Shown: positions 9,158 to 57,958 of the stretch, in pieces
How the letters are laid out: each line of letters begins with the position of its first letter
Numbering within the stretch: the stretch's first letter is position 1
Origin: a virus
DNA: 64,000 nt
IMG/VR virus record: IMGVR_UViG_3300021405_000009
Span: 1 to 64,000 of that record
Strand: one strand, 5' to 3'
Program-made: the position numbers and the translations under genes
Notes under the pieces: generated by a model
The model's input: the letters and a program-made list of their open reading frames with translations, nothing else
Told to the model about the DNA's origin: nothing
Database searches by the model: none

Positions 9158-9511
9158 TTAGTGGTGAGACAAACTCCAGGCCGCGCCCGCCGCGTTGTCG
9201 GCGATCGAGTATGCTCGCACCGTGATAGCCAATCTGCGGTGGCGTGGGCGGAGCCAATGTACGGCCACGATCTTGACTGCCGCCTGAATGCTGAAGTAAG
9301 CGATCAGCGTTGGCCGGTTCCTGACGAACGGCCTGGCGACTGGATTAAATTCGTGAAACCCGAAGGTTTGGCGGTTGCGGTCAGTGGCGTAAGCGTCGGC
9401 ACCAGTCGCGGCCAGTTGCACCACGTCCAGTAGGAGCGTCGGTTTCTCCGCTGTTTGCGCGGAGATACAAACATGCGCCAGTAGTATCAAGGCGAGGACA
9501 ACGGAGCGCAT
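9158..9511 (-). CDS. Signal-peptide/membrane hypothetical protein
   Basis: MRSVVLALILLAHVCISA signal-like N-terminus; HEFNPVARPF motif. Confidence 0.5.
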   Translation of the reverse strand: MRSVVLALILLAHVCISAQTAEKPTLLLDVVQLAATGADAYATDRNRQTFGFHEFNPVARPFVRNRPTLIAYFSIQAAVKIVAVHWLRPRHRRLAITVRAYSIADNAAGAAWSLSHH

Positions 9512-16851: not shown

Positions 16852-17529
16852 TTAGAGCCTTTCGAGTGCGAATTCGTTCACTTGCAACGTGCCACCAACG
16901 GCATTGCCCCACTTCGCGGTGGCGAAGAAGGTGAGACCAGAGAGCGCGGCAACCGCCAGGGGAGCGGCGTTCGCGGTCACCGGTGCCACATAGGTTGAGG
17001 CAGTTCCGAAGTTCCCGAGCGACTGATAGAAGCCGCCAAGCAACCCCGAGGCCAGATCCCATAGCAGGGTACTTTCGAGGCTGAAGTTGTACTGGCCGCC
17101 AGCTACCGTGGCAATCGCGCCGGTCGAGCCGAACACGTTGGCTGCGGTCCCGATGTTGGTCGTGGTCCCGCAGTAGATCTTCACGGTAATGCTGGCCGCA
17201 GCGTTCGCCACAGCCAGTCCGACGCCAGAAATGCGAAGCCGGAAGGGCAGGCCATTAAAGGAGCCGGTGTTGAACTCCGGACGCTGAACGCTGCGACCGA
17301 GAATCGGAGCCTCACCTTGCTGCGAGAGTCCACGGTTCACGTTGATGTCGAGCGGACTTTTCGACCCGACAATCGAGGTCTGGGTTGGCACGCTAAGAAT
17401 CGCGGTCGAGCCCGAGCCCGTGTCAGTGTTGAGCAGGAATGCCGTTTCCGTCACCGTGGCCAGCGTTTGCAGGCCGATGAAGTTGCGGAGAGTCCCGCCC
17501 GTAAATCCGGAGAAGGTGTTGAAGTTCAT
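16852..17529 (-). CDS. Virion structural/decoration protein (paralog family A)
   Basis: Paralog of 11550-12227; ends NEFALERL. Confidence 0.55.
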   Translation of the reverse strand: MNFNTFSGFTGGTLRNFIGLQTLATVTETAFLLNTDTGSGSTAILSVPTQTSIVGSKSPLDINVNRGLSQQGEAPILGRSVQRPEFNTGSFNGLPFRLRISGVGLAVANAAASITVKIYCGTTTNIGTAANVFGSTGAIATVAGGQYNFSLESTLLWDLASGLLGGFYQSLGNFGTASTYVAPVTANAAPLAVAALSGLTFFATAKWGNAVGGTLQVNEFALERL

Positions 17530-22606: not shown

Positions 22607-22609
22607 TCG

Positions 22610-22804
22610 TTATTTCTTTTTCGGCAGGACGCGCTTGAGGCGCGGGTTACTTTTCTTCGCCGCAGGCGATGCCTTGCGGGTGGCGGCGGCCAATACGGCG
22701 GCCGGATTCTTGATGCCTGAGCGTTTGCCGATCTTCGCGGCGGCGGCGGTGAAGCCGGGGTGTGCTTTGGTTTGACCTTTACCCATCTCTGATGCTGCGG
22801 CCAT
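22610..22804 (-). CDS. Small Lys/Ala-rich basic protein
   Basis: HPGFTAAAAKI...ASPAAKKSNPRLKRV. Confidence 0.6.
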   Translation of the reverse strand: MAAASEMGKGQTKAHPGFTAAAAKIGKRSGIKNPAAVLAAATRKASPAAKKSNPRLKRVLPKKK

Positions 22805-22806
22805 GT

Positions 22807-23265
22807 CTATCCCATTTCCTTTTGTGCTTGAGTAAGTGCGATTGCAATGGCCTGCTTCGGGTTACTAACCTTCGGGCCTTTCTTGCTCCCACTGTGTAGC
22901 GTGCCCGCTTTGAACTCGCCCATGGTCTTCTTGACTTTGCTCTTGGCTCGGGGCGACTTCGGCGCTTTCTTCTTGCCAGCGCCCAGGCTGGCGGCAGCGC
23001 CCTTGGTGAGGATGTGTTCGCCCTTGTGAACCTTCGCCCAACCGGTTCGCTTTACGCGTCCGCCTCGGCGAAAGGTTGCGGGCAGCGCCATGCGCACGCC
23101 AGGGCTGGGGGCATCACGCACCGGCCGCATCGCCGTGCCGAAAGGCTGGTCCGGCTTTTCTGGGCCGACACGCCCGCCTAACACTGGTTTTTGAATCGGG
23201 TTCACCGGAGCGGGTGCGCCGGTCGTAGACTTGAATTGGTTCAAGGCACTCCAGAGGTTCGGCAC
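22807..23265 (-). CDS. Basic protein with DUF6496-like C-terminus
   Basis: KVKKTMGEFKAGTLHSGSKKGPKVSNPKQAIAIAL. Confidence 0.65.
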   Translation of the reverse strand: MPNLWSALNQFKSTTGAPAPVNPIQKPVLGGRVGPEKPDQPFGTAMRPVRDAPSPGVRMALPATFRRGGRVKRTGWAKVHKGEHILTKGAAASLGAGKKKAPKSPRAKSKVKKTMGEFKAGTLHSGSKKGPKVSNPKQAIAIALTQAQKEMG

Positions 23266-23577
23266 TTACATGGCCTGCGGCTGAGGTTGAGCGCCCTGGG
23301 CCTGGGGTTGCATGTTGTCGCCCACGTGTTGCTGCAGCGCGTCCATGTCAGGCACCGCGTGCTCTTCCGGCTCCTGCGGCATACCGCCGCCGCCGCCCTG
23401 CTGGGCAGGCTGGGGCTTGAAGTGATGTTTCACGATGAAGCCGCCGCTCTTGGCATGGCGAATGTGCATCTCGTGAACGGGCTTGCCGCCCTTCTTTGCT
23501 TTCGACTTGGGCTTCGACTTCGACTTCGACTTCTTTTTGCCGCCCATGGCGGAACCTACGCGGTCTTGATTGCGCAT
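23266..23577 (-). CDS. Small basic His/Gln-rich protein
   Basis: KKKSKSKSKPKSK, HEMHIRHAKSGGFIVKHH. Confidence 0.6.
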   Translation of the reverse strand: MRNQDRVGSAMGGKKKSKSKSKPKSKAKKGGKPVHEMHIRHAKSGGFIVKHHFKPQPAQQGGGGGMPQEPEEHAVPDMDALQQHVGDNMQPQAQGAQPQPQAM

Positions 23578-23599: not shown

Positions 23600-23995
23600 T
23601 TAGGTCCCGACGAAAGCGACCGTGATGGGGCCGATGGTTCCCGTGGCCGTGGGCGTCCCACTTAACACACATGAGGTTCCTGTGGAAGTGAGAGCCAACC
23701 AGCTTGGAAGCGTGCCTGCCGAGAGCGTGCAGGTGACTGAGGTCTTCGGTCCAACCGTCAGCAAGGTAACGCTGTAGGGCGTGCCGAGAGAGATGGTGGG
23801 TAGAGGACAGACGGTAAACGCTGGCGATGGTCCAGGCTGGCAACTGGTGGTGCCGACCGTTACGGGCGCGAATCCCCAGACGGCCGCAGAGAACTGGCCG
23901 CTTAGAGTTACTGTGCCAGTGGCTTGCGCAACAGCCTGTCCATGACCGAAGGCAGTGAAGGCGAATAAGGCGATGACGAGCAAATACTTTCTCAT
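23600..23995 (-). CDS. Secreted Ig-like (He_PIG-type) protein
   Basis: Signal peptide MRKYLLVIALFAFTAFG; LPT..LGTPYSVTL..GTLPSWLAL..LSGTPTATG. Confidence 0.65.
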   Translation of the reverse strand: MRKYLLVIALFAFTAFGHGQAVAQATGTVTLSGQFSAAVWGFAPVTVGTTSCQPGPSPAFTVCPLPTISLGTPYSVTLLTVGPKTSVTCTLSAGTLPSWLALTSTGTSCVLSGTPTATGTIGPITVAFVGT

Positions 23996-24006
23996 GTTAC
24001 CTCTTC

Positions 24007-27000
24007 CTAGTGATCTGCGAACGGGCCTGGGCTTCCGCACGGTGTGGCGCAAACGTATTGGTTGAGAACTTCGGCAGCCAGGGTAGAGGTTGGGTTAAAG
24101 CCAAGATCAGTTCCGTCGGTGGCTTGGTGTGCCGATCCCGCAGCATACAGACTAGCTTTGCTGTTACACGAAGCGTCGGTTGACTTACATAGACGGTACT
24201 GCGTCCAGTCGCTCACAATGATGGGGAAGGATGCGGCACTCATCGCCGCCAGCACGCCCGCGCAGTTTCCCGTCGCTGGGTCGTTGCCGGAACAGAACGA
24301 TGCCGGGACGCCGTAGAGTGTCGCGGGGGTTACTGCGACATACGCCGGAGTGTACTCGGTGTAGCAGGCCGCCATGCCACCGGCGCTCGGAGAGCCGTGG
24401 CCAGGGCAGGTCACAGAGCCGTCCACCGAGGGAAGCAGCGTGTTGTTGAACTGCATCGAGACCGGATCGTACATTCGGGTTGAGGTTCGCGTGCCCGCTC
24501 CGGCCGTGGAACTCAATCCACCATTGATGAGAATGCTGTTGGTGATCGTGAAATTACGCGCCAGTGGGAAGATGTTTGTGCCGCCGTTGGCCGAGTTCGA
24601 TGGATTGTTCTGGCTCAGCGGATCGTCGATCATCGTGATGTGCGAGAAGGCGTAGTAGTTTGGCCAGCCCTGCGCGCTAGATAGCGTGCAACCTGTAACG
24701 CCTGAGCCCGCCCCGCCTACACCCGGATTCGAGTACACGACGGTCAAGCCATTCAGCAGGGTGCCAGTCAGCGCCGGTGGCCCCATGACGTTGTTGCCGA
24801 CGTTGAAGCTTGTGTCGGAGCATCCCGTCACTGTGATCGGATCGCCGACCGCGATGTCGCTTACTCCCAACCCTGAAGCCGCAGTCAGCGTGAGTGTGGT
24901 AACGAACCCGGTTGGGTCGCGTAGTGGAGCTACGGCCCAGGTATTTCCCGGCACCGATGAGCCAATCCGCCAGCCGTATTGCGGAGTCGCGCCCGCGCAG
25001 GAATTTGACGTGAGGTTGCTATTCGGATTTCCCAGGAAGAACACGCTGGCGTTGTAGACCAGCCAGTTCGACCCGAAGAAGATCTCGTTGGGGAGCGATA
25101 CTCCGCCACCATTGCCACCGCCCGCATCAGACCTATCTCCAAGACTGGGACCATTGCAGGAGTTGCGCGCGACGATGTTCGTCACCGTCACGTTGTCAAG
25201 GGTTGTCCAGGTGTTCGTGGAGAGCACGCCGGAAGAAGTCTGCGCGGTCTTATGCGAGAAGTCGGTACCGTTTTGTGCTCCCGCATTGGTCACGTTCTCG
25301 TAGATGTTCCCGTCTTCAAGAACTCGCTCGCCAAACTTGTATTCGTGAGCGTTCTTACGCGTGTAGCCGTTGGTCACACTTGCATTCGGGAAGTAGCCGG
25401 TGCCGATGTTGACCGTGCCACTTGTGCCTGATCCGCCAGTTACACTAAGTCCGTTCGCCGGAAAGTATCCCGTGCCAGCCGTGGTCACCGTTACCGCCGT
25501 GATCGTTCCACCCGCGCCAACCGCTGTAATGGTTCCAGTTCCGCTGCTGCCACCAGTCTGTACCACCGTGATGACATCGTTGACCAGGTATCCGGAGCCG
25601 GTGCCAGCGCTTCCGTTCTTTGAGATCTGCCGAATGATCGGGACGTTCTCCGCCAGCATCCACGAATAAGGATAGGTGTAGCGGTTCGCGCGGTCTTCTT
25701 CGTCCTGGCAGGTCACGAAGTTGGTGAAGCTGATGGCGTTCGAGAACCCGCCGCAAAGCTTGCCGATCGCCTGCCCTTCGACCCAGTTGTGGGTGTACTT
25801 CGTCTGCTGCGCCAGCAAGGCTGAGATGGCGTGACCTTCGCTGCCTGGCCGGATGGCCTTGTCCATATAGACATAGACCACAGAGCAGTAAACGCAACCA
25901 TTGAAGGCAACCAGGCTCGGTAAAGAGTTCGCGCCCGTGGGCGCGCCGGTAGCAATGCACGTGCTCGGGCAGCCGCTCATCGGGGCGTCGGTCCAGTCCC
26001 CGTGCAGATAGCTGTAAGCCAGGTGGATATGCGTCGGCAGTTGGGTTTGAATCGTCTCGGTGTTCTGCCCCATGGCGAAGGGCGCGGACGATCCCACTAA
26101 CCCAGCTTGCGGCCGTAGTTCGGCATTCAGGACTGCGAAGTGATGCGGCCCGACGTTGTTGATGTCCCAGGTCGCGGACTGAATGGCGTTGCAACTGTTG
26201 GCCGTGCATTCGATGGTGTACATCGAAGCGATGTCGTTATAAGCCGACGTGTTGGTCGCGGTACCATTGGCCAGCGTAAACGCGCCCGATGAAACTGCGT
26301 TGATCGTCGTACCCAGTTGGTACGACATGTTGGCCCCAGTGCATCCCAGGTTGCGGATTCCTGGCTGGGTAGCCAAGACAATGTTGTCTTCGACTCCGTG
26401 CGAGCACGCAGTCTGCCCCGGCGTCAGTGGGCTGGTCGAGGTCAGAACGATGAAGTTCGTCGAAGTGTCGCCAGCGGTCTGGGGAAGAGTAATTCCATTT
26501 GCGCCGGTGTACAGCGCCGGAGGAATCGCGATCGTCGTTCCACTACCGTTCGCCGTCCGGCACGACTCCGCATCATTCACCGCCTGCTGCAAACTCGACT
26601 GACTGGCTGCCGTATAAGGGCCGTAATTTGTCGCGCCACAGGTCCACGATCCCCCGGTACTCGATGCCGGGAAGTTGATCGTGTTCGTCGTGGTGCCGTT
26701 GTACTCAGTGTTATTCACCCAAGTCAGCGGCAACTGCGGGGCCTGGAAGGTGGAAGTAACTGCGGTGTTCACCCTCAGCGTCAAGCTGCAGGGTAGATTG
26801 TTGTCCACCGTGAGCGTGCAAGGTGGGCTGGAGAATCCCGCATTCACATAGGGCAGGCTGGCCGTTTGCGTCAGCGTTACAACCGTGCCGTTGGCAAAGC
26901 TCGGAGTGCAGGTCGGCGGGCAAACAATTCCGCCAGGATTGATCGTCGTGGTCCCGGTCCCGGCAGGCGTGACGTTGAGAGTCGGCGTGACGGTCGAGAA

Positions 27001-29760
27001 CCCAAAAGTAAAGTTGCCCGATCCCGCTCCGGTGCCGACCGTGCTGCCTGCGGCAAAGGTCGCGGTGCCAACCGAGCTGTCGGTCCAGCCGCTGGCCATG
27101 CCGATCGCGGTAAGCGTCTGGGGGGTGACCACCGAAACAACGCCTGTATAAAGGATGGCGGGCGCAACGCAGGTTCCGCTTCCATTGGAAGCTGGAGTCG
27201 CTCCGTCCGTCCGGTAGCAGATCGCGAGCGACTGCGCCTGCGAGATGGTTACCGTCTGAGGCGGAAAACCGCCTACAGGAGAGAATGTCGGCGCAGCTCC
27301 CTGCAGGGTGTAGACATAAGTGTTGACAACGCTGTCGGTGTTGATGTTCGTGCCAGCGATAATCTTGAGGGTCGTGTTGACCGCAATCGAAACCGTCGCG
27401 CCGCTGGTAAGCGAAGTGCCGGTCGTGCAGCCCGTGCCCAGCGTGTTGGTCGCTGGCGTCGATCCGTTCGTGGTGTAGCACTGCACCGTCGTACCTGAGT
27501 TCGGGTTAGTGCAGGCGGGAGTCTGGGTAGCCGTATAGGTGCCAGTCCCTGGTGAGCAAGTCGAGGCCGAGGCCGCAGTCGAGCTAACGATGAAAGTCGC
27601 CGTAGCCGCAGTGCTGGTATCGGTGATGGTCAGCGTGCCTGCGATGGTGCCAACTGTGAGCACGGCAGATGCGGTGGTGTTTGAAGTTACAGTCGGAGTA
27701 GCCAGGCTGGCCCCGGTTCCGCCGCTCAATGAGAACAGCGTGCTAGCCGTCTCAGAAAGCCATAGGCAAGGGCCGGTGCAGGTCAGCGCCAAGGTCGGCG
27801 TCGTGCCGCGATTTCCCAGGGTAGGGAAGATGCCGAGCGTTGCCGTCGAGACTGTGATCGTAGTGGTGATCGAGTCTGTAGTGTCGGTAATGGTCAGTGT
27901 GCCGGTGCCAGAGCCGGTCGTGATCTGCAGTGTCTCTGAAGTCGCAGAAGAGTTCGACTTACTGGCCAGCGTAGCTCCGGTCACGCCAGAGATACTGAAA
28001 GCCGTGCTGCCGGTCCACGCCGTGTTAACCCCAGTGCAGAGCACCGCGATGTTATTGGTGTGATGCGAGGGGATGGTCGTGGGCGTACAGGTGAAGCTGG
28101 CGGGGGCTGTGTTGAACTCGTAAGATCCGGAGTCCCACGCTCCGCTGCCGGGGCGGGCATTGATGGTGGTGGACGGATAAGTTGCGATGAAGCCGCCCCA
28201 TGACGAGGACTCGCTCACACCACCGAGACTTGAACACAGGTCATTGGTGATCCCCCCAGTCCCGCAAGTGGAGGTTATATTATTGCCCTTGCCAACCGTG
28301 CTGTCAGTGCCGGATGTTGGCTGCCAGAAATTGGCGATGGTGTACCCGCCAGTCGCGGAGAAAATTTCACCACCATTGTCCGTGGTCGAGCAGACGTTGT
28401 GCGGCGTCACCGCTCCTGTGTTGCAGTTGAAGAAAGAGCTACCGCTGAACACGCCGCTACGGCCAGTGAGTTGGTTGTTCTCAGCGGTGATGGAAGATCC
28501 GCTGGCCCACGTGCTTAGGTGTGCGGTCATCCCGCAAGTGCCATCGGTGGAGTTGTTCAAGAAAGTCACGGTGATGACCGTGAAGCTATTGTTTCCGGTC
28601 GGCTCCAACAGGAAGCAGTTTCCATCCGTGGGAGGCTCGTGCTGGTCATTCACGACGACGTTGTTATAGATGTACATCGTCGGGGCGGCGGGATTCCACA
28701 TCTCGCCTTCATTCACGTTCGCGACGATATTGTTGTAGGCGGTGAATGTGCCGGTACTCTGCGACAGGGTCTCGATCACGTTTCCGTGACGGCCGTATCC
28801 AGGCTCAAAGATGAAGTCGAAGAAGTTGTCGTGGAGTAGAACGATACTGCCAGCTTCACAGCCTTGCGACGTGTGGATGAAGATACTATAGGCGAGAGTC
28901 GCACAATCGTCCATCGCCCAGAATGTCGCTGGGATTGGCGACGGAGTTCCGCTGCCGTTCCAGACCGAGGCTACGCAGCTTGAGACCGTGCAGACCTGGC
29001 TGGCGGTCGAGTCGGTGCCATCAAAGACATCGTAGTAATAAATGTTAGTGGTGCCGCCGCCGCCGTTAACGCCGCGCCAAGTGTCGTCCGAGGCGCTGGT
29101 ACCGGCCGTCCATCCGTGAAAATAGCTTCGCAGTACACCGCCGCTTGTGCCGGAGTTCACATAAGCGCCAGAAGGGTTTCCATTCCAGCAAGCTCCCGTA
29201 AACTCGATTCCATCAACGAAAATGTTCGTTCGACTGGACCAATCGAACAGCTTTAGCGTGTTGTCATCCGCCGCGCTGCAACTGGCCACAAAGGACGTGG
29301 ACAGTGTGTTGTCCATCGATAGGATTGGACGCGCGAACGACCCACCAGAAAACCATGTCGGGTCGATCGTGTAGTAGATCGGATTCGTGCCGTTGCCACT
29401 GGCCGTCGGCGTAATCGTCCCGCCAGTTGCAGGCGTCCCAGTGGTGTAGTGCCAGGTATCGCCGCCGCGAAAGATGAACGCGTCTCCGGCGATCGTGGTG
29501 TGGGTTCCAGTGAAACTGGACATGCCAGGAGCGTGGAGCCAGGAGTGGGTTTCGTCTACGCCGGTGTTTGAATCAAGCCCGCTGGAGCTGATGTAAAAGC
29601 ACTGCAGAATGCCCTGGCTAGCCAGCGTGGAGCTGCCAGAGTTGCCGCCAGTTCCTGGGCTCGACAGGTTGACATAGTTCGATCCGGACGGACAAGTGCC
29701 ACCCCATGCAGACAAGCTGATGGCGAAGAAACAGAAGAAGTAGAGAAGTTTCCTTACCAT
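24007..29760 (-). CDS. 1917-aa secreted beta-helix/Ig-like adhesin or tailspike-like protein
   Basis: Signal peptide MVRKLLYFFCFFAISLSAWG; N-terminal beta-helix, chitobiase/FN3-like APTFSP..YxTDGxTP domains, second beta-helix; many Cys pairs. Confidence 0.7.
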   Translation of the reverse strand: MVRKLLYFFCFFAISLSAWGGTCPSGSNYVNLSSPGTGGNSGSSTLASQGILQCFYISSSGLDSNTGVDETHSWLHAPGMSSFTGTHTTIAGDAFIFRGGDTWHYTTGTPATGGTITPTASGNGTNPIYYTIDPTWFSGGSFARPILSMDNTLSTSFVASCSAADDNTLKLFDWSSRTNIFVDGIEFTGACWNGNPSGAYVNSGTSGGVLRSYFHGWTAGTSASDDTWRGVNGGGGTTNIYYYDVFDGTDSTASQVCTVSSCVASVWNGSGTPSPIPATFWAMDDCATLAYSIFIHTSQGCEAGSIVLLHDNFFDFIFEPGYGRHGNVIETLSQSTGTFTAYNNIVANVNEGEMWNPAAPTMYIYNNVVVNDQHEPPTDGNCFLLEPTGNNSFTVITVTFLNNSTDGTCGMTAHLSTWASGSSITAENNQLTGRSGVFSGSSFFNCNTGAVTPHNVCSTTDNGGEIFSATGGYTIANFWQPTSGTDSTVGKGNNITSTCGTGGITNDLCSSLGGVSESSSWGGFIATYPSTTINARPGSGAWDSGSYEFNTAPASFTCTPTTIPSHHTNNIAVLCTGVNTAWTGSTAFSISGVTGATLASKSNSSATSETLQITTGSGTGTLTITDTTDSITTTITVSTATLGIFPTLGNRGTTPTLALTCTGPCLWLSETASTLFSLSGGTGASLATPTVTSNTTASAVLTVGTIAGTLTITDTSTAATATFIVSSTAASASTCSPGTGTYTATQTPACTNPNSGTTVQCYTTNGSTPATNTLGTGCTTGTSLTSGATVSIAVNTTLKIIAGTNINTDSVVNTYVYTLQGAAPTFSPVGGFPPQTVTISQAQSLAICYRTDGATPASNGSGTCVAPAILYTGVVSVVTPQTLTAIGMASGWTDSSVGTATFAAGSTVGTGAGSGNFTFGFSTVTPTLNVTPAGTGTTTINPGGIVCPPTCTPSFANGTVVTLTQTASLPYVNAGFSSPPCTLTVDNNLPCSLTLRVNTAVTSTFQAPQLPLTWVNNTEYNGTTTNTINFPASSTGGSWTCGATNYGPYTAASQSSLQQAVNDAESCRTANGSGTTIAIPPALYTGANGITLPQTAGDTSTNFIVLTSTSPLTPGQTACSHGVEDNIVLATQPGIRNLGCTGANMSYQLGTTINAVSSGAFTLANGTATNTSAYNDIASMYTIECTANSCNAIQSATWDINNVGPHHFAVLNAELRPQAGLVGSSAPFAMGQNTETIQTQLPTHIHLAYSYLHGDWTDAPMSGCPSTCIATGAPTGANSLPSLVAFNGCVYCSVVYVYMDKAIRPGSEGHAISALLAQQTKYTHNWVEGQAIGKLCGGFSNAISFTNFVTCQDEEDRANRYTYPYSWMLAENVPIIRQISKNGSAGTGSGYLVNDVITVVQTGGSSGTGTITAVGAGGTITAVTVTTAGTGYFPANGLSVTGGSGTSGTVNIGTGYFPNASVTNGYTRKNAHEYKFGERVLEDGNIYENVTNAGAQNGTDFSHKTAQTSSGVLSTNTWTTLDNVTVTNIVARNSCNGPSLGDRSDAGGGNGGGVSLPNEIFFGSNWLVYNASVFFLGNPNSNLTSNSCAGATPQYGWRIGSSVPGNTWAVAPLRDPTGFVTTLTLTAASGLGVSDIAVGDPITVTGCSDTSFNVGNNVMGPPALTGTLLNGLTVVYSNPGVGGAGSGVTGCTLSSAQGWPNYYAFSHITMIDDPLSQNNPSNSANGGTNIFPLARNFTITNSILINGGLSSTAGAGTRTSTRMYDPVSMQFNNTLLPSVDGSVTCPGHGSPSAGGMAACYTEYTPAYVAVTPATLYGVPASFCSGNDPATGNCAGVLAAMSAASFPIIVSDWTQYRLCKSTDASCNSKASLYAAGSAHQATDGTDLGFNPTSTLAAEVLNQYVCATPCGSPGPFADH

Positions 29761-30254
29761 AGGTTCTTGTGCTCGGTCCAGTTCTTCAGGTAGACGCCGT
29801 GGCGGATCAGCGCGGAGGCTGGGGGCTTAAAGGCAGACATCGCCAATGGCGCGGTTACGCCCGGTTGAAATAAGTCAGAGTGCCCGTGGTAGGGCTTGAA
29901 TAGATCGGGGTGGCCGTAGTAAGTACACTTCACAGGCTCGTGGGTGCAGACCCTTGCGCCGACTCCGAATGAAACACCGTTGCCATCCATCCAGCAGTAG
30001 GACGTGATGTGCCTCTGGGCAACATCGGAGACGACCGCGTAATGGTCACAGCCGACGATGATCTTGCCGTCGATCTTGAGAGCTGCCACCCATCCAGGTG
30101 CGTCGTCCATAGGGCCGCTCATGTAGGGCTTGTAGGGAAGACTTCCCCAGTGAGCTACCTGCTCGAAGCCTTGCGGGTTCGACCTCGACCACTGCACATA
30201 GATCCGTGCGGTCTGGGCGGGGGCCATGGCGAGAAAGAGCCATAGACAGGCCAC
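29754..30254 (-). CDS. Hypothetical (probably secreted) protein; start uncertain
   Basis: Frame open to 30791, but the upstream part is antisense to the methyltransferase; hydrophobic LVACLWLFLAMAPAQ segment; stop overlaps next gene start. Confidence 0.5.
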   Translation of the reverse strand: MACLWLFLAMAPAQTARIYVQWSRSNPQGFEQVAHWGSLPYKPYMSGPMDDAPGWVAALKIDGKIIVGCDHYAVVSDVAQRHITSYCWMDGNGVSFGVGARVCTHEPVKCTYYGHPDLFKPYHGHSDLFQPGVTAPLAMSAFKPPASALIRHGVYLKNWTEHKNLW

Positions 30255-30278
30255 TAAAGCTGTAGTAAGGTTCCGGGT

Positions 30279-30872
30279 ATGTTTAGAAAACTGTGCGATG
30301 AGTTCTTTCCTCGGCCAGATCTTTTTGATCGCCAACATGGCACTAAGACATCTGGTCATTCTTGTCTTCCGTGGACCCGCGTTCTTCATGGCAAACGGGA
30401 CGAGACTTGCCGGTATCAGGGCATCGATCCCGCGCTGTTCTCCGCCGCCGTGAAGGACCTGCCGCGCTGGCCGTTTATTGATCTCGGTTGCGGCCGTGGG
30501 CGCGCTCTGATCCTGGCGCAGGAGGCTGGATTCACTGATCTGGCTGGCGTTGAATTCTCTCCAGCGCTTTGCCGCTGTACTCGCGCGAACCTGGCCAAGA
30601 CCAACACCGACGCCAAGATCATCTGCGGAGACGCGCGCGACTATGCGTTTCCCGCTAACCCGTCCGTGGTCTTCATGTACAACCCGTTCGGTGAGTCCAT
30701 CATGCGAACGGTTTTTGCTAACATGCAGGGGCATCCGCGCATCGTCGTGTATGTCAACCCGAAGCAGGCGCATGTATTTCGTCCATTCCATGTTCTGCGT
30801 TCCGACGAGAACACTGTGATCTTCAGCGATAGCGATAAAGGCGGGGACTTAGAGGGCGGTGGTCTTGGGTAA
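30279..30872 (+). CDS. Class I SAM-dependent methyltransferase
   Basis: FIDLGCGRGR motif I, GVEFS motif II, GDARDY, FMYNPF. Confidence 0.85.
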   Translation: MFRKLCDEFFPRPDLFDRQHGTKTSGHSCLPWTRVLHGKRDETCRYQGIDPALFSAAVKDLPRWPFIDLGCGRGRALILAQEAGFTDLAGVEFSPALCRCTRANLAKTNTDAKIICGDARDYAFPANPSVVFMYNPFGESIMRTVFANMQGHPRIVVYVNPKQAHVFRPFHVLRSDENTVIFSDSDKGGDLEGGGLG

Positions 30873-31604
30873 GACGGTGGTCTTCGGCACTATGGTGGTT
30901 GCTGGCAGGGCCGAACCGGCAAAGAACGATATGGTGTAACCGGTAATCGCCATGCCGGTGGTGATGTTTAATACTGGGGTGTAAGTGGTGGCCGCGCCAA
31001 CCGTCTGGTACTCAACCGCGCCACTCTGGTTACCACCACTGGCTTGCCCGTTGGTTGAGATCGTGTAACCAGTGCCGTTCGTGAAGGTGTTGTTAGTCGC
31101 GCCATTCCCGCCCGATGTAAGCACAAGATCCCCGGTCTGCGTCGTGGTAATTGCAGGCATGGTGCAGGCCGTACAACTGGCGATGGAGTTGTTAAAGGCC
31201 CCGACATCGAAGGCGGCCGATGTTGCCACCCCCGAAAATTCCTGCCCCATACAAACGCAGAAGGTAGTCCCGCCCGTGAAGGTCACAGTCGTTGTCACCG
31301 TTCCCCCCGCGATGTTCGTGGCGTAACAATAGAACACGGCGTTCGCGGCGTGGAGCGTGGTGTAGGTATTCGTGCCGTCCGTGCAGGCAACTGTGACCGC
31401 GCCGCTGCTGCTGTTATATTCCGCGCCAACAATCACCAGTAGGTCGCCTGCCGTCGTAGTACCACAGGACACCGTGAGCGAGGCCACGTTACTGGACTGA
31501 TTGTTCGGCGTGCAGTCTTTGCGGAAGGCGATCGCGGCGTGCGCGGAAGAGGTCGCGGCTAGAAAAGAAATTGCGAGTAGAAGTAGCCAGAGTAATTTCT
31601 TCAC
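30849..31604 (-). CDS. Secreted beta-sandwich protein (fibre-tip/lectin-like)
   Basis: Signal peptide KKLLWLLLLAISFLAATSSAHA; TTAGDLLVI and EFSGV motifs; C-terminal PKTT repeats. Confidence 0.65.
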   Translation of the reverse strand: MKKLLWLLLLAISFLAATSSAHAAIAFRKDCTPNNQSSNVASLTVSCGTTTAGDLLVIVGAEYNSSSGAVTVACTDGTNTYTTLHAANAVFYCYATNIAGGTVTTTVTFTGGTTFCVCMGQEFSGVATSAAFDVGAFNNSIASCTACTMPAITTTQTGDLVLTSGGNGATNNTFTNGTGYTISTNGQASGGNQSGAVEYQTVGAATTYTPVLNITTGMAITGYTISFFAGSALPATTIVPKTTVLPKTTAL

Positions 31605-34600
31605 TTACTGGAGCCTCGTTGCGACCGCGCTCAGGGCATAGGTGGCGGTGCCGGTATTGCATTGGGAGAACGTCGTTGCGTACTGGATGACTGTACCGTT
31701 GGTGTCGATGTTGATGTCACCGCTACCCCAGGCGTTAACTGTCGTTGCCCCCCAGAGCATGATGCCGCTGGTAGCGAAGGCCGCGATGCTGGAATTCGTG
31801 ATGATCGGTATCGTCTGCGCTGAGTGAGCCGTCCCATTCGCATCAGTCCAGGTGAGCGAGAAGAGAACGCCCCCGGTAGTGTTCGCGCTGCAGGCGGCCC
31901 CCGACTGGTAGAGAGCGATGTGAACGTGGTAGGTGCCAGCCGTGTTGCACGCCCCAGCCGAGGCCGCGCAAAGGGTTGCCGTTCCAACTGAGGCCACTAA
32001 GGCCGTGGAGCGAATCGCGCCTGGCTGAGCCCGGACCATGGTTCCATAACTGGTGCTGCCGTTGGTGGCAGCCTTCCATTCATGTGAAGTGCTGTCGGGG
32101 TAAAGGTTCGACGTGCCGGAAACGTTCGTTGCCGACGTGCCTTCTGTCGCGCACAAACCGCCAGCGGTGCCGAAGCTGGTGCAGTTGGCTGCGCCCAGCG
32201 TCATCGCGCCCGCCGCCGCCAGGTTGCCGGTGGCTCCGAAGCTGAACTCTTTCGTGGCTCCAGAAGTCGAGAACACGCCGCTGGTGAAAGTGCCGAGAGT
32301 GTAGAAGTCAGCCAGGTCGCCAGCCGCTACCGTCTCGTTGACAATCAAAGGAACCTGCCCGGTGCCGCCCGCGCCCGTGGTGTTGATGCCAAGAGAGCCG
32401 GTGGTCGTGGTGGTCGTGTTCGCGTTGGTGAAGACGTAAGGGTAAGTTAGGTTCGCCGTCTCGACGCCCGCGCGCGTGATCTCATGACCAATGCCGGTCT
32501 CGGTGACTGTGGTCTGCGCGGCCGACCCGGTTAGCAAGCTTTCTGCCAGGGTCACGCCCGCGAGAACTCCGCCAGCACTTAGTGTGGCAGTCGCGTCCGG
32601 AGTCTGCGATGCCTGAGAGCCGCCGCCCGTCATCAGCGCCGTTGAGGTCAAGGCCGCCGCGCTGGTGACGCAAGTCGCGCAAGCAATGGTGCCGGTCGTG
32701 GTAATGGTGCCGCCCGTGATCGGGCCGGTCGTCGCGATGGAGGTTACTCCACCGGCGCTGGCCGTCTGCGGATTTTGCAGTTGCCACTCCGTGCCGTCAT
32801 AGATGGCATCGGCGATCGCCGTGGTCGTAAGATCGTTGGCGACCAGCGCAGCCGTTCCAAGCTTGGTGACGCTCTTGGCCGTCAAGCCGTTGACCGCGAG
32901 GGTCGGACCTGAAGTCGTGTTAGCCGCCAGCGGAAGCCAGCGAACTTCTACGCCCGTGGTAAGAGCTGTCACGGCCGGAGTGAAGGTCGCGGTTTGCGCC
33001 TGCGCCGTGCCGCCGCCCGCCACATAAGCGTTCGGGCTAACGTCTGAAGTACCAATCAACACAGCCGCTGGCGCTGTGGTTGAGGCCGTGTTATTGCCCC
33101 AGAACTGATGAGCTGTGAAGTTACTAACTACGGTCGAGCTGGCGTTCAGAACACAGCCTTCATCGACCGTCTGAAACACAACGTCGAAGCAATGGTTGGC
33201 CGCGTTGGCGTACCAGCCGTCATCGCCGGAGATCCCGGTGAACGCCGTGCCTTCTACTGCAATCCCGCCGCCACCGGTGCCCACAGTCGGGTTCGGAGCG
33301 CTCGCGCCGACAAAGGTGGTGCCAGCTACGCCGACGCTGAATACAGAAGATCCGCCCACCTGCAGGTCAGCCAGTTTGCTTCCCGCGCCAGAGGCGGTGT
33401 TGGTCACGTTCTCGAAGATCCCAGCATCCACCACACCCGAGGTATTCCAGGTCGGAGTGACCTTGAGCGCCGGTACAGTCTGAGTTCCAGTGAGCGAGTC
33501 GGACACAGTCAGCGGAACGGCCGTCGATCCGGCTAGGGTCGCGATCAGTACTTCCTGGTCGCTGGTTCCGGTGGCTGCGGTGGTCTCGCCGAAGGTGAGG
33601 GCAACCTGTGAGTTTGTGGATGTAGCCGAGTTCAGCGCCCAGGTGTTGTTCCCGTTCGCCAGCGTGGTGTTTGAAACCAGCGCCGTCACCGCACTCAATG
33701 CTGGAGTGGTGGACGCGCAGCTTCCGCCGTTGCACTGGTCGGCGTTGACGTGACCGCCGCCGAAGGCTTGAAACACCCCAGCCGTGGTCATCTCCGCGCC
33801 GTTGGAAGTGCCGCCAGCGGTAATCAGGATGGGCAGCGCGGTCGATCCGCTCTTGGTGGAGATCCCTACTTCAATGTCTCCCGTGCCGGTGGCCGCCGTC
33901 CCTTCCGTGAACCCAACGGCGGTCTGCGTATTTGTGGTCGTCGCCGACTGCCAGATTTCGTTGAAGTTCCCGTTGTTGATGGTGGTGTTGACCGTAGACG
34001 CGGTCACCGCGCTGAGCGCGGGTGCGCCGGTTTGCGCCACACAATCGCTCGCTTGCGGAGTGAAAACAAAGTTCGCGGTGTTACAGCCGGTCAAACCTTG
34101 AACTAAGGTTGCCACGTTCGCGGCCGTCGCGGAGATGGGCTGCTTCGACGAGTTCGATCCCAGCACCAGCGCCGAGGACGGCACCGCTCCCAGATTGATC
34201 TCGTCTGCACTAACATGCCCCGTGCCGCTGGCCTTGAATACGCTGGCAGAGGTTAGTACCACGCCATCGGTAAGGTTGCTTCCAGAGTCCGGTACGCCAG
34301 CCGTGAAGATCGAGGTCGAGTTCGATTCGCACTTCTCGATGTCGAGATAGCCCGCGTTCGGGTTGGTCGCGAAAGTGGTATTTAGAGCTACCCAGCCGCA
34401 ATCGCTGATCTGTTTGATCGGTGCGGTCCAGGCCAACGCCGAGGTCGAACCTTCATAACTCGCGGCGTATGGGTTGGTAACATTGTTGACCGGAAAGAGA
34501 AGCGCCAAGGGCGGCTGTGAATACGAGCTGCCACTCTGACCACTCCAGGTCCACTGATCGAAAAATGCAGTCGGAATGCTGACCGTGCCGCTGCCCGTGG

Positions 34601-36014
34601 CCGCCGCAAAGCCGCTGCCGAAGGCTACGCTCGAAGTGCTCGAACAACCGAAGCTGATGGTGCTGTTGTTGTAGCTCAGCCCAGTCGCGCAGTTCGGAAC
34701 CGTCGCAGCCTTAAAGACGCCCGACGAAGCTCCAATCAGAAGTTGGCTGGCAGCGATCGCAGTGGCCGTACCCGCGCCCGCGCCCGGAACTGCGGCGATC
34801 TCGCCCCAGCCCGCGTTGGCCACGTCATCATAGAGATTGCCGTCGCCTGAAACCGCCATGCCAGAGTTGCCCGTCCCGGCTGCCGCTGGTGTGCCGCTGG
34901 CCGCGATCGGAACCGTCGTCATGTAATACGGGCCGGTGAGCGTGAACTTCGACGCCACGATCCCGCCAGACGGCGTGTAAGTCAGGGTCGAACTGTTGTC
35001 CGATAGGTTGGTATCAAACGCGCACAGGCCGGAAGAGTTGGTGTAAAGAAAATTGCCGATGGAGGCCGTGACCCATGTAAGGTTGGTCGCTCCGGAGTTC
35101 ACGCACGGTACCTGCCCGGCCGTTGGGGAGCCATCGTTCACCTGGCTCAAGCTGACTGGGTTCGCGCCCACGAAGGCGTCGGTGGCAACGTCGGCCGAGG
35201 TATCTCCAGGCGTCTGCGTTACCGCCTGCGTGCCGGTGGCCAGGGTCGAGCTGACTGACCATGTGCCGGTGCTAACCTGCGCTACGCCGTTGGACGCGGA
35301 AGTACTGATTCCCGTCCCGCCAATCGCAGTGCCGATCGTGACCAGGCCGCTGTTCGGAATCGAGCCGTTGGTAATGTGCGAGCCATTCACGACAGTAGGA
35401 GCCGTCGCGCTGCCGCCCAGGTCGGTGTTTAGCTCGATCAATCCGAGCGTGCCCACGGCCGCGCTGGCCACGTTGAACTGGACGTTTGAACCCGATGGGT
35501 TGGTGGCTGTAGTGTTCGTGCCACTCTGAAAGTTAATGGGCGACAGAAGCGACGAGCCGCCGTTCACAGTGATAGCCGTGCTGCTGCAAGGGATCGCGCC
35601 CAGGACGCCGCCCGAGGAGAAACCAAAACAAGGCGTCGTCAAGGTGGGGGCGGTGCCAAAGGTGAAGGGCGATCCGCTGATGGTAAGGCCAAGTACAGTC
35701 GCGGCGTTCGAGCCCGAAGTCGTAACCTGCCCGCTCAGCTCTGAGGCTGCAGGCGTGGTGCCGTCGCGCAAGATGCCGGTCCCGGCGCTGGTCGAGTTCA
35801 ACCCGCCGTTGGCGCGCGTGACTGGCGAGGTTAGGTTCACCGTGACCGTGCCGGTCGTACCACCGCCACTTAGCCCCGTGCCCGCCGTAACTCCAGTGAT
35901 CGTGCCACTGCCGCCGCTGCCGCCACCCCGCCCGGTGTAACTCGGGGCCTGGCCAAACAGCATTGCCGCAGATAGCAGCCATAAGGCTGCGAGGAAGCTT
36001 AGTTTCCTGACCAT
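31605..36014 (-). CDS. 1469-aa fibre-like protein with signal peptide
   Basis: Signal peptide MVRKLSFLAALWLLSAAMLFG; phage fibre repeats GTITGVTAGTGLSGGGTTG and VTSIATTGPITGGTITTTGTI; internal PALSAVTA duplication. Confidence 0.7.
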   Translation of the reverse strand: MVRKLSFLAALWLLSAAMLFGQAPSYTGRGGGSGGSGTITGVTAGTGLSGGGTTGTVTVNLTSPVTRANGGLNSTSAGTGILRDGTTPAASELSGQVTTSGSNAATVLGLTISGSPFTFGTAPTLTTPCFGFSSGGVLGAIPCSSTAITVNGGSSLLSPINFQSGTNTTATNPSGSNVQFNVASAAVGTLGLIELNTDLGGSATAPTVVNGSHITNGSIPNSGLVTIGTAIGGTGISTSASNGVAQVSTGTWSVSSTLATGTQAVTQTPGDTSADVATDAFVGANPVSLSQVNDGSPTAGQVPCVNSGATNLTWVTASIGNFLYTNSSGLCAFDTNLSDNSSTLTYTPSGGIVASKFTLTGPYYMTTVPIAASGTPAAAGTGNSGMAVSGDGNLYDDVANAGWGEIAAVPGAGAGTATAIAASQLLIGASSGVFKAATVPNCATGLSYNNSTISFGCSSTSSVAFGSGFAAATGSGTVSIPTAFFDQWTWSGQSGSSYSQPPLALLFPVNNVTNPYAASYEGSTSALAWTAPIKQISDCGWVALNTTFATNPNAGYLDIEKCESNSTSIFTAGVPDSGSNLTDGVVLTSASVFKASGTGHVSADEINLGAVPSSALVLGSNSSKQPISATAANVATLVQGLTGCNTANFVFTPQASDCVAQTGAPALSAVTASTVNTTINNGNFNEIWQSATTTNTQTAVGFTEGTAATGTGDIEVGISTKSGSTALPILITAGGTSNGAEMTTAGVFQAFGGGHVNADQCNGGSCASTTPALSAVTALVSNTTLANGNNTWALNSATSTNSQVALTFGETTAATGTSDQEVLIATLAGSTAVPLTVSDSLTGTQTVPALKVTPTWNTSGVVDAGIFENVTNTASGAGSKLADLQVGGSSVFSVGVAGTTFVGASAPNPTVGTGGGGIAVEGTAFTGISGDDGWYANAANHCFDVVFQTVDEGCVLNASSTVVSNFTAHQFWGNNTASTTAPAAVLIGTSDVSPNAYVAGGGTAQAQTATFTPAVTALTTGVEVRWLPLAANTTSGPTLAVNGLTAKSVTKLGTAALVANDLTTTAIADAIYDGTEWQLQNPQTASAGGVTSIATTGPITGGTITTTGTIACATCVTSAAALTSTALMTGGGSQASQTPDATATLSAGGVLAGVTLAESLLTGSAAQTTVTETGIGHEITRAGVETANLTYPYVFTNANTTTTTTGSLGINTTGAGGTGQVPLIVNETVAAGDLADFYTLGTFTSGVFSTSGATKEFSFGATGNLAAAGAMTLGAANCTSFGTAGGLCATEGTSATNVSGTSNLYPDSTSHEWKAATNGSTSYGTMVRAQPGAIRSTALVASVGTATLCAASAGACNTAGTYHVHIALYQSGAACSANTTGGVLFSLTWTDANGTAHSAQTIPIITNSSIAAFATSGIMLWGATTVNAWGSGDINIDTNGTVIQYATTFSQCNTGTATYALSAVATRLQ

Positions 36015-36772
36015 GTAACCGTAGCTCCCGTCGTCGAGGCGACGACAAAAATAGCGTTGGAATTACTTACGGCTGGACAGTAGCCCGCTCCAGGAGGTAT
36101 CTCAATGCCGGTCGAGGTAGTAACTCCACTCGGTCCGACAAACACGCTGATCGTGTTGGTACTCAGTCCTTCAATACACAAACCCTTGGCCAGTAAGTTC
36201 GAGGCCAGGGCCGCCGCCGTGCCAGTTACTGCCTGCTGACCGGAAACAATCGTGGTCGGCACCGTCAGCACTACCACCTGCGGACTGGGAAAGTTACTCA
36301 CCGTGACCGCACCGGCAGCCGCTGAGGCCGGGTTGTTCACGAAGCCGAACAGGAAGACAGTCACCGAGCCTGAGCCGGTAACGGTTGGGGTGATCTTGCC
36401 CTGGGTCGCGAAGACCGCCGAGCCGATCGTGTTCGAACCGGCGCTGGTACAGGTCTGAGAAGTCATCAGACTGCCGGTGGTGTAAGCCGTGCCAGCCGCG
36501 TTCAGTCCATCGACCGTCAGCGTACATCCCGACACCGTGCCTTGCGGTACCCAGATCATCTGGTACCAGCCAATGCCCTTGGTGTTGAAGCTCGCAGTCT
36601 GCACTGAGCTGCTGGTGAAGGTGTAGGCCAGGCCAAGCTGGTAAGGCACCGCCACGGGATAGATGATCTGGCTGGGACCACCTGTCTGCGAGAGCGCCGG
36701 GGGCGCGACCACCAGACTCAGTAGACCGACCATGAAAAGGATTACTAATAGGTTGCGCACGAGCTTCTTCAT
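35999..36772 (-). CDS. Secreted structural-type protein
   Basis: Signal peptide MKKLVRNLLVILFMVGLLSLVVAPPALS; C-terminal NTISVFVG..GIEIPPG jelly-roll module. Confidence 0.65.
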   Translation of the reverse strand: MKKLVRNLLVILFMVGLLSLVVAPPALSQTGGPSQIIYPVAVPYQLGLAYTFTSSSVQTASFNTKGIGWYQMIWVPQGTVSGCTLTVDGLNAAGTAYTTGSLMTSQTCTSAGSNTIGSAVFATQGKITPTVTGSGSVTVFLFGFVNNPASAAAGAVTVSNFPSPQVVVLTVPTTIVSGQQAVTGTAAALASNLLAKGLCIEGLSTNTISVFVGPSGVTTSTGIEIPPGAGYCPAVSNSNAIFVVASTTGATVTWSGN

Positions 36773-37107: not shown

Positions 37108-37743
37108 TTACACGCGATCGATGGAGAACTCGGTCAACTGCACCGCGTTCGGGGAAGTCCCGGCCGAGAAGGTGAAGGTGAGTTCGAAGTTCAAGTCAGC
37201 GAACTTCAGCCCCGAGCCGATCGTGCCGCCAGAGAGCACGGCGTTGATCGTGTAGGCGGGAGTGGTGGTGAAGTTCGTCCACGACGTGGAGCAGAAGCCG
37301 CCCAAGCTGCCAGCGGTCGAGTTGAAGAGCAACTGCCACTCGTACATGAAATCGACGGTCGCCACGTTCGAGCTGGCGATGGTCGCGCAGGTGTGGAGCA
37401 AGGTGCAGCCGGTGCCTACAACGCCCGTCGAGGTCACGCTGCCCGCAGCCCCAATCACGCCCACGGCAACGCCGTTGACTTGGTAAAGGATGGGGATAAT
37501 CGTGGCCGCGCCACCAGTCGTGGTCGCCTTACCGCAGGCGCGGATCTTCAGCGGGTGGACATCAGAGTAGCCGGAAGCGATATCCGGAGTGGGCGAAACC
37601 GTCAGGCCAGCGCCTGCAGGAAGCACAGGAGAGGGAAGGCCGGGATAGCCGGAAGCGGGAACAAGAAACACGTTGGCGGTGGTGCCACCGGCCAACTGGG
37701 CGGGCAGGTTGTAGAAGCCGTAAATGGTGTTGACGTTACTCAT
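37108..37743 (-). CDS. Virion structural protein (divergent member of paralog family A)
   Basis: PLKIRACG, EWQLLFNS, ends TEFSIDRV (compare SEFSITQL, NEFALERL). Confidence 0.5.
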   Translation of the reverse strand: MSNVNTIYGFYNLPAQLAGGTTANVFLVPASGYPGLPSPVLPAGAGLTVSPTPDIASGYSDVHPLKIRACGKATTTGGAATIIPILYQVNGVAVGVIGAAGSVTSTGVVGTGCTLLHTCATIASSNVATVDFMYEWQLLFNSTAGSLGGFCSTSWTNFTTTPAYTINAVLSGGTIGSGLKFADLNFELTFTFSAGTSPNAVQLTEFSIDRV

Positions 37744-37830
37744 GGAAAGTTTCCTTTAGAAAATTGAAGGTGGGGATGGACTGCGGGTGCCGGGAATACG
37801 TTCGCCTAGCGGCGCACTATCAATCCCGTT

Positions 37831-38130
37831 TCATGCGAAAAGCGTCTGGAGGGCCGCCCTGAGTTTGGCGCGGAAAGTGGGTGGAGGCGGAGGCGGCTCA
37901 ACAATCTTAGCGGTGACGCGGTACACTTCGCGGCCTTCGCCGTTGCAATACAAGTCGGTGAAGTAGCGCTCCACTGCAGGGCCTGCCACGGTCTCGGTCG
38001 AGAAGTAGCGCGCGACCATGTACTGGCCGGTGGCCTCGACTGAGAACAACTCCATGTCTTCGCCGTTCCTGGCCTTGGGGGCTGCGAAGTCCGGGTTTGT
38101 GCTCTTGATTCCGACGAGCTGGATGAGCAT
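37831..38130 (-). CDS. Hypothetical protein, first gene of late operon
   Basis: ATG with AAGGA upstream. Confidence 0.55.
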   Translation of the reverse strand: MLIQLVGIKSTNPDFAAPKARNGEDMELFSVEATGQYMVARYFSTETVAGPAVERYFTDLYCNGEGREVYRVTAKIVEPPPPPPTFRAKLRAALQTLFA

Positions 38131-57892: not shown

Positions 57893-57923
57893 GTTGAGTT
57901 TCCCCCGGCAGCTCTTATACCAC

Positions 57924-57958
57924 AAAAACCAGGCCCGGAAGGGAGCTTCCGAGCCTGG
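57924..57958 (-). terminator. Intrinsic terminator followed by extended -10
   Basis: CCAGGCUCGGAAG/UUCCGGGCCUGG plus UUUUU, then TGGTATAAG. Confidence 0.7.

Follow-up and report, generated by a model that had tools for sequence, protein, structure and literature searches.

A late-gene cassette of predicted Sec-exported, cysteine-rich receptor-binding proteins in a probable acidobacterial phage, and a tentative two-compartment route of particle assembly

Introduction

To our knowledge, textbook pathways of tailed-phage assembly all place the folding of fibres and spikes in the cytoplasm. In phages lambda and T4, the tail fibre is paired with an assembly or adhesin partner encoded downstream (Stf-Tfa and gp37-gp38, respectively). 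Export of a late protein of a phage element has been described for XepA, which leaves the cytoplasm during development of the element (PMC6834076). Searching the full-text literature, we came across no account of fibres or spikes of tailed phages that are made as Sec preproteins. Here we analyze a cassette of six late genes encoding such candidates in the IMG/VR virus record IMGVR_UViG_3300021405_000009. The window studied, 64,000 nucleotides long, comprises positions 1 to 64,000 of this record and forms the beginning of one contig of 98,239 bp (called G000). An initial annotation of the window proposed that the cassette proteins are exported, fold oxidatively outside the cytoplasm and are attached to virions at or after lysis. 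Our comparison of the cassette with its relatives gives strong indirect support to export and oxidative folding, and leads us, more tentatively, to a particle completed from two cellular compartments.

Results

Export leaders in the cassette

The cassette consists of six minus-strand open reading frames (ORFs), P0005, P0004, P0003, P0002, P0001 and P0006 in their 5' to 3' order (Table 1), which occupy 36808-23600 between small leaderless late genes and the small genes preceding the terminase. Their description in the initial annotation as a late-operon cassette of fibre/adhesin proteins was correct. Five of the six genes start with a canonical leader for Sec and signal peptidase I (SPase I), composed of a basic n-region, a hydrophobic core of 12-15 residues and small residues at -3/-1. 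The start codons lie on the minus strand where they had been placed before, and the database gene call for P0005 also starts at MKKLVRN. Leaders, defined by a basic n-region, a hydrophobic core of 8-15 residues and small -3/-1 residues, all within the first 20-30 residues, were called by a feature-based scorer alone; this scorer is crude and flags some non-exported ORFs too. It was positive for 5/6 cassette genes and for 8/102 of the other ORFs of at least 100 amino acids (aa) (Fisher p=6.5e-5), and several of these eight plausibly encode exported proteins, namely lipoproteins, a PEP-CTERM protein and a small protein encoded at 9158-9511. Twin arginines are absent from the cassette leaders, as expected of the Sec type.

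Where five, probably six, signal peptides had been counted, the five canonical leaders stand and the sixth, that of P0002, is ambiguous. From its likely starts at 30338-30389, the P0002 product would begin with a basic stretch of 30-45 residues, followed by a hydrophobic core and AQTA↓R (the arrow marks a predicted cleavage site), and this N-terminus could be either a signal or a signal-anchor. A longer version of the ORF, starting at 30791, has an Arg-rich, non-protein-like 5' part and looks non-coding there; the ~460 nucleotides (nt) between P0003 and the likely P0002 start (30390-30848) hold no convincing gene. P0002 is also without counterpart in the cassette of a related contig, G001, described below. 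The two genes whose products start with MVRKL, P0004 and P0001, overlap the preceding stop codon, as had been noted, by 16 nt and 7 nt. The shared MVRKL start was considered as a recombination junction and rejected, because the DNA common to the two starts amounts to only ~14 nt.

Conservation of leaders and cleavage sites

Database searches yielded 69, 72 and 65 homologues of P0001, P0004 and P0005, respectively. The leader is kept, in variable sequence, in ~90% of more than 140 homologues; nearly all full-length homologues of these three proteins carry one, and truncated gene calls account for most of the apparent exceptions. While the leader drifts, the start of the mature protein is preserved, as exemplified by GGTCP(S/T)G in the family of the P0001 N-terminal module. 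Among P0004 and P0005 homologues, 71% have a small-x-small motif and a Gln just past the hydrophobic core, compared with a background of 6-7% in the same proteins. This pattern is the Q-rule described for Bacteroidetes in a study that did not analyse Acidobacteria (PMC5837995). A glutaminyl cyclase (PF05096) is encoded in 4/5 host-type acidobacterial genomes (G002-G006).

The P0003 family includes many leaderless relatives, whose own alignment was so diverse that it did not serve to scan contigs. When P0003 is aligned with them, the predicted mature start of P0003 (AHA↓AIAF...) falls on residue 2 of the leaderless members (MAIAF.../HVQ). Because of this coincidence, the P0003 leader is, as far as the alignment tells, a precise N-terminal addition. 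Taken together, four independent lines, namely conservation, the cleavage motif, the junction with leaderless relatives and the cysteine pattern presented below, argue that the predicted leaders are functional.

Paired cysteines in leader-bearing proteins

The mature cysteine counts of the cassette proteins (Table 1) are all even. The 22 cysteines of P0004 form 11 sequential close pairs, and at least 14 cysteines are invariant in an alignment of the C-terminal module of P0001. Cysteines number only 0-2 in each of the portal, capsid, adaptor, nozzle-like and internal proteins. In 36 related IMG/VR loci, leader-bearing proteins contain 2.29 cysteines per 100 aa, with an even number in 49/55 (binomial p=9e-10), compared with 0.86 per 100 aa and an even number in 64/133 for the leaderless proteins of the same loci. 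The ORFs of these loci came from a simple longest-ORF caller, so that the leaderless control set includes some spurious ORFs. Furthermore, cysteines are scarce or lacking in those members of the P0003 and P0005 families that have no leader.

Leader conservation, the P0003 junction and the cysteine pattern thus support the view that the cassette proteins are very probably exported through Sec and disulfide-bonded outside the cytoplasm. The corresponding proposal of the initial annotation, "exported, oxidatively folded", gains strong if indirect support from leaders that are kept, from a cleavage site located at the N-terminus of leaderless relatives and from even, paired cysteines confined to leader-bearing proteins. 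Another reading is that the N-terminal segments have no role in export, that the proteins fold and assemble in the cytoplasm, like those of model phages, and that the hydrophobic start has another use, for instance as a transient membrane tether or as the target of a phage protease. In its favor, we know of no tailed-phage fibre studied so far that assembles outside the cytoplasm, and the scorer is crude and flags some non-exported ORFs. However, this reading explains neither the even, paired and conserved cysteines, nor the small -3/-1 residues with Gln at +1, nor the exact junction with leaderless homologues, and we consider it highly improbable.

Domain architecture of the cassette proteins

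Pfam and PHROGs searches with the six proteins returned almost nothing, and structures were modeled for P0005 and for residues 1007-1917 of P0001. P0001 has three parts: an N-module (~22-560), which is common to other leader-bearing giant proteins; immunoglobulin-like (Ig-like)/Fn3-associated repeats (~560-1000); and a tailspike-like beta-helix module (1007-1917; C-module). He_PIG and Fn3_assoc/CHB_HEX_C domains score below the Pfam cut-off in the cassette and above it in the G001 homologues. The AlphaFold2 model of the C-module is a right-handed parallel beta-helix of medium quality (predicted local distance difference test, pLDDT, 63). Its top Foldseek matches are the tailspikes of HK620, Sf6, LKA1 and Dettilon (prob ~1; template modeling (TM) scores 0.2-0.34), and Klebsiella phage depolymerases are matched as well. 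A sequence search of PDB with P0001 found nothing, and the Atlas matches of the C-module, all below 0.9, serve as a lead only.

P0004 contains an internal repeat (57% identity over 68 aa) that was seen by direct segment comparison and missed by BLAST self-comparison. Its tip domain (residues 1252-1469, 218 aa) is also the C-terminal part of dozens of leader-bearing proteins that differ in the rest of their sequence, and is present in 20 IMG/VR loci. The sequence search of PDB with P0004 gave only two marginal matches, to fimbrial proteins (E 0.04-0.06, residues 676-741). P0003 belongs to a phage-specific family of ~240-aa proteins encoded after the fibre gene (272 representative clusters). Its 30 nearest Atlas clusters are mostly viral among the matches listed, the top three being 91-92% viral, and in at least 12 independent viral loci the ORF that immediately follows the tip-domain gene is recognized by the family hidden Markov model (HMM). 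BLASTP does not connect P0003 with the 312-aa family member of the related phage L004; the family HMM links them (E 6e-8).

The P0005 model (pLDDT 86.7) shows two beta-sandwich domains joined by a linker. Its best PDB match is XepA (6i56), with a Foldseek E of 9e-6 and a VIA Z of 9.1 that covers 180 residues at a poor global root-mean-square deviation (rmsd). The comparison with YomS (6i5o) gives a VIA Z of 8.2 and an rmsd of 3.6 over 100 residues, on a scale where unrelated jelly rolls score Z 7-8. The C-terminal domain of P0005 matches a 94-aa leaderless, cysteine-free Gordonia phage protein (TM 0.86) that is encoded between the capsid and head-tail adaptor genes. P0005 itself is the first gene of the fibre cassette and is not within a lysis cassette, the putative lysis genes of G000 lying elsewhere (Table 1). 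The homologue of P0006 in G001 passes the Pfam cut-off. The features that the initial annotation had read in these proteins, a beta-helix fold, Ig-like/Fn3-associated domains, a fibre repeat and cysteine pairs, were thus all recovered. With a tailspike-like beta-helix, a tip-domain fibre and its partner, Ig-like domains and a XepA-like protein, the cassette proteins appear to be of the receptor-binding type.

Related cassettes in phages and prophages

The survey of related phages that the initial annotation had called for retrieved the cassette from G001 and large leader-bearing genes from tip-domain loci, and found the cassette lacking in the close relative L004 and in the cultured phage Tunturi_3. 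G001 is a 61.4-kb IMG/VR contig of a P22-like podovirus, with P22-type portal, major capsid protein (MCP), hub and ejection proteins. It encodes homologues of P0004 (79% identity, residues 287-1469), P0003 (86%), the P0001 N-module (57%) and P0006 (71%), and its cassette adds two more leader-bearing proteins. The N-terminal 286 aa of P0004 are unrelated between the SU10-like G000 and the P22-like G001, and the distal ~1180 aa are 79% identical. The G001 cassette directly follows the ejection-protein genes and precedes the lysis block, which is the tailspike slot, and we found no other spike or fibre candidate in the G001 genome. In the lysis region of G001, the gene at L005 22020-22406 codes for a Tlde1/YkuD (L,D-transpeptidase-fold) protein, and a 213-aa protein with a leader is encoded next to follow. 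The Tlde1/YkuD family is otherwise known from effectors of the type VI secretion system.

In the 20 contigs with the tip domain (GC 43-64%), 2-4 consecutive large leader-bearing genes adjoin genes for structural proteins or the terminase; siphovirus-like contigs have genes of this kind among the neck genes. Identical P0001, P0004 and P0005 are also carried by a 164.5-kb contig. Among cultured phages in INPHARED, there was no homologue of P0001, of P0004 or of a leaderless P0003-family member.

The P0001 C-module also occurs in 23 loci of Acidobacteria metagenome-assembled genomes (MAGs), where it is part of fusions with other beta-helix modules or with deacetylase modules. In most full-length loci, another giant leader-bearing protein is encoded before the P0001-type gene and a homologue of a G000 lipoprotein after it, and in one examined locus a phage portal gene lies 5 kb downstream of the P0001-type gene. 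Because of this portal and the conserved phage lipoprotein neighbor, the loci are, judging by gene content, prophages, and the view of P0001 homologues on Mb-size contigs as host genes was rejected on the same two grounds. The lipoprotein in question, of 220 aa, is encoded outside the window (G000 84940-85602, plus strand), near a putative cell-wall hydrolase gene (83920-84351); its homologues, 31-56% identical (mostly ~50%), are encoded immediately 3' of the P0001-type spike gene in ~20 Acidobacteria prophage loci. This lipoprotein might act together with the exported spikes in lysis or exclusion.

The frequent occurrence in prophages raises the possibility that the cassette is a lysogenic-conversion ("moron") block, expressed from the prophage to build or decorate a surface structure of the host, such as an adhesin layer, that benefits the lysogen. 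In many Acidobacteriaceae MAGs, P0001-type genes are found in prophages, always beside the lipoprotein gene, and lambda Lom and Bor, exported proteins encoded in the late region, are precedents. Leader-bearing ORFs of Porphyromonas gingivalis phages have been interpreted likewise (PMC10367356). However, a scan for promoters and terminators inside and around the G000 cassette gave counts equal to the shuffled expectation, and the start and stop codons overlap those of neighbors within one late operon. None of the six proteins carries a lipobox, a PEP-CTERM motif, a beta-barrel or another membrane or surface anchor, so that the host-surface structure offered as an alternative in the initial annotation has no support from sorting signals. 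In addition, no integrase was noticed in the 98-kb genome, in a search that was not exhaustive, and the P0003 family is nearly all viral. Nor does a conversion block account for the cysteine pattern, and we consider it an improbable explanation.

Genomic context and probable host

The final 148 bases of G000 duplicate its first 148, and this overlap between its ends indicates a complete, circular genome. One long minus-strand operon runs from ~38130 down past position 1 and on to ~92.6 kb; the portal, adaptors, MCP and large terminase (TerL) share the strand of the cassette, and the same operon also encodes large tail and internal proteins (Table 1).

Table 1 Cassette genes and other features of contig G000 (an arrow marks the predicted cleavage site; cysteines are those of the mature proteins)
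Feature	Position	Strand	Length	Start and leader	Cys	Remarks
P0005/P0148	35999..36772	-	257 aa	36772, MKKLVRN...ALS↓Q	4	two linked beta-sandwich domains (model)
P0004	31605..36014	-	1469 aa	36014, MVRKLSF...LFG↓Q	22	G/A/S/T-rich repeat fibre and tip domain
P0003	30849..31604	-	251 aa	31604 (GTG), MKKLLWL...AHA↓AIAF	8	
P0002	29754..30389	-	~190-210 aa	uncertain (30338, 30359 or 30389)	4	
P0001	24007..29760	-	1917 aa	29760, MVRKLLY...AWG↓GTCP	52	three parts
P0006	23600..23995	-	131 aa	23995, MRKYLLV...AVA↓Q	4	He_PIG Ig-like domain
Two leaderless genes	37108..38130	-	99 aa and 211 aa			open the operon just upstream of the cassette
Three small conserved genes, then TerL	20600..23577	-				directly downstream of the cassette
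TerL	20600-22606	-				late operon
SU10-type portal	17721-19808	-				late operon
Major head protein (MCP)	13981-14967	-				late operon
Two SU10-type adaptor paralogues	9511-10242 and 8092-9147	-				head-tail module
GT4 glycosyltransferase	6993-8042	-				within the structural operon, flanked by an adaptor gene and the gene for the 934-aa nozzle-like protein
Putative lysis genes	near 83.9-85.6 kb					outside the window

The two leaderless genes upstream of the cassette are kept in the relatives L003, L004 and L041. The longer one is among three paralogues of 211-225 aa (N-termini such as MSNVNT.. and MNFNTF..), encoded on the minus strand at 37108-37743, 16852-17529 and 11550-12227, that is, just upstream of the cassette and in the head module; relatives of these paralogues precede leader-bearing cassettes in L003, L004 and L041. 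The small protein at 9158-9511 (117 aa, minus strand), a leader-bearing protein with a weak DUF5658 match, is encoded between both adaptor paralogues, and the G001 cassette includes, on the opposite strand, a homologue of 40% identity. A 223-aa protein encoded at 57254-57925 (minus strand) combines an N-terminal leader with a C-terminal PEP-CTERM motif (PF07589, 22.2 bits, cut-off 20.7) and would be a phage-encoded substrate of the host exosortase system. The GT4 glycosyltransferase gene bears on the suggestion, made in the initial annotation, that the appendages might be glycosylated.

The closest cultured phage is Tunturiibacter phage Tunturi_3 (PP885686), with a 30% identical TerL. The host is most likely an acidobacterium, since homologues of the cassette proteins occur in Acidobacteriaceae and Sulfotelmatobacter MAGs.

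Discussion

The explanation we favor is that the cassette is an accessory host-recognition set. P0004 would be its long tip-domain fibre with P0003 as a small conserved partner, P0001 a tailspike-like beta-helix acting on polysaccharide, P0006 a small Ig-like companion and P0005 a XepA-like two-domain protein. All would be synthesized late as Sec preproteins and threaded unfolded through the inner membrane; SPase I would cut off the leader, often exposing Gln, and the proteins would fold in the periplasm, where all of their cysteines would pair into disulfides. The particle itself, with portal, capsid, adaptors, nozzle and a leaderless 370-aa fibre, would be built in the cytoplasm. The two pools would meet once lysis proteins breach the inner membrane, and the exported fibres and spikes would then dock on finished particles via the lineage-specific N-terminal part of P0004, perhaps also onto one another. 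Adding spikes or fibres to finished particles works in vitro for P22 and T4. We put forward the whole chain, from Sec export through periplasmic folding to docking on cytoplasm-built particles at lysis, tentatively and as a close call. Docking is favored because of the receptor-binding architecture of the proteins, the lack of an alternative spike in G001 and the swap of the P0004 N-terminal part. Replacement of this part between phages with different tails is as expected for a particle anchor.

Alternatively, the proteins may be exported without ever being on the particle, and act as free periplasmic or released proteins on host surface glycans. In this role they might cut or bind exopolysaccharide (EPS) or lipopolysaccharide, strip receptors, block superinfection, free progeny from debris or loosen the slime layer. 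All of the evidence for export and disulfides applies equally to free proteins, the P0001 C-module has a beta-helix fold of the glycanase type, and cassettes often adjoin lysis genes. A bacterial tailspike-fold EPS hydrolase that is exported, WceF, is known (PMC7949094).

Several further observations weigh against docking. No known particle-binding domain, for example Head_binding, was found in the cassette or G001 proteins by Pfam, PHROGs and PDB sequence searches, and PHROGs searches with nine leader-bearing fibres encoded elsewhere did not reveal an anchor domain either. P0003, P0006 and the P0001 N-module occur in both SU10-like and P22-like phages, and the presence of the same modules in phages with different tails fits tail-independent proteins equally well. 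XepA, the best structural match of P0005, is exported and reported to be absent from particles (PMC6834076), which is a precedent for free proteins. Tunturi_3 has neither the cassette nor any leader-bearing late protein, and G000 encodes leaderless homologues of the Tunturi_3 fibre (370 aa) and nozzle (934 aa). Finally, at the corresponding position of the close relative L004 (TerL 77% identical) there is just a single gene of the P0003 family, whose product has no leader and one cysteine. Judged from this locus, the cassette is dispensable for particle building, a property that free proteins acting on the host surface would share.

On the other hand, the architecture of P0004, a non-enzymatic repeat fibre of 1469 aa that ends in a tip domain and is accompanied by a conserved partner, is that of a receptor-binding protein and not of an enzyme. 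Free proteins would leave G001 without any tailspike or fibre, would not explain the swap of the P0004 N-terminal part between tail types, and are hard to reconcile with the finding that other phages, cultured Gordonia phages among them, encode these domains without a leader in their structural modules. We therefore regard the action of the cassette products solely as free proteins as doubtful, though a serious contender.

If docking at lysis is accepted, it is possible, and we say so with still more reserve, that two compartments share in making the host-recognition apparatus of a large class of soil phages, with the head and tail core put together in the cytoplasm and the exported, disulfide-bonded parts joining the particle only at lysis. 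This class would comprise podovirus-like and siphovirus-like genomes, with a GC content of 43-64%, from phages of Acidobacteria and further phyla, and its exported proteins would probably be pyroglutamate-capped. Should whole receptor-binding modules routinely be exported, lysis would become an assembly step, and the infectivity of particles would depend on the Sec, signal peptidase and Dsb systems of the host. Fibres stabilized by disulfides might explain the persistence of phages in acidic soils. Annotation of soil viromes and prediction of host range should then treat leader-bearing late proteins as candidate receptor-binding proteins and not as auxiliary or "moron" genes. Even with free proteins, the phage would devote 13% of its genome to secreted glycan-acting proteins, which would matter for soil biofilms and carbon turnover. 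Because the P0003 and P0005 families each contain members with and without a leader, the question lends itself to a direct test.

Among known systems, the tailspikes of P22 (gp9), HK620 and Sf6 (2vji, 4xor, 2vbk) resemble the C-terminal ~900 aa of P0001 in their beta-helix, in the exchange of modules between phages and, in G001, in the tailspike slot of the genes. In contrast to these tailspikes, P0001 carries a Sec leader together with 52 cysteines and showed no head-binding domain of the P22 type; it is also 3x longer, with an extra N-module and Ig-like repeats, and the sequence identity is ~10%. The P0005 model, with two beta-sandwich domains and a linker, finds its best structural matches in XepA of PBSX and YomS of SPbeta, at scores modestly above the jelly-roll background. 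XepA is encoded in the lysis cassette of an element from a Gram-positive host, and P0005 stands at the head of a fibre cassette in a diderm phage. WceF of Pantoea stewartii is likewise an exported protein with the phage-tailspike fold, and acts on the cell's own exopolysaccharide (PMC7949094). It is chromosomally encoded in an EPS cluster and carries a twin-arginine translocation (Tat) signal, whereas the cassette consists of phage late genes whose products have Sec-type leaders and many disulfide-type cysteines. The ORFs of P. gingivalis phages have SPase I leaders that expose Gln (PMC10367356; PMC5837995), and 71% of the P0004 and P0005 homologues show this motif. Their function is unknown and they have been interpreted as modifiers of the host outer membrane (PMC10367356), whereas the cassette proteins are of fibre/spike type, show a disulfide signature and occupy receptor-binding gene slots.

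The gene order of P0004 and then P0003, a long fibre followed by a small partner as in the at least 12 viral loci, parallels Stf-Tfa and gp37-gp38; unlike Tfa and gp38, to neither of which P0003 has a Pfam or PHROG match, P0003 carries a leader, as does its fibre. Tunturi_3, a 97.6-kb podovirus of an Acidobacteriota host, shares homologues of its fibre and nozzle with G000 (PMC11924767). These comparisons suggest that the cassette consists of phage receptor-binding and depolymerase proteins that have moved to the export pathway, and the route of assembly would be new if their attachment to the particle is confirmed.

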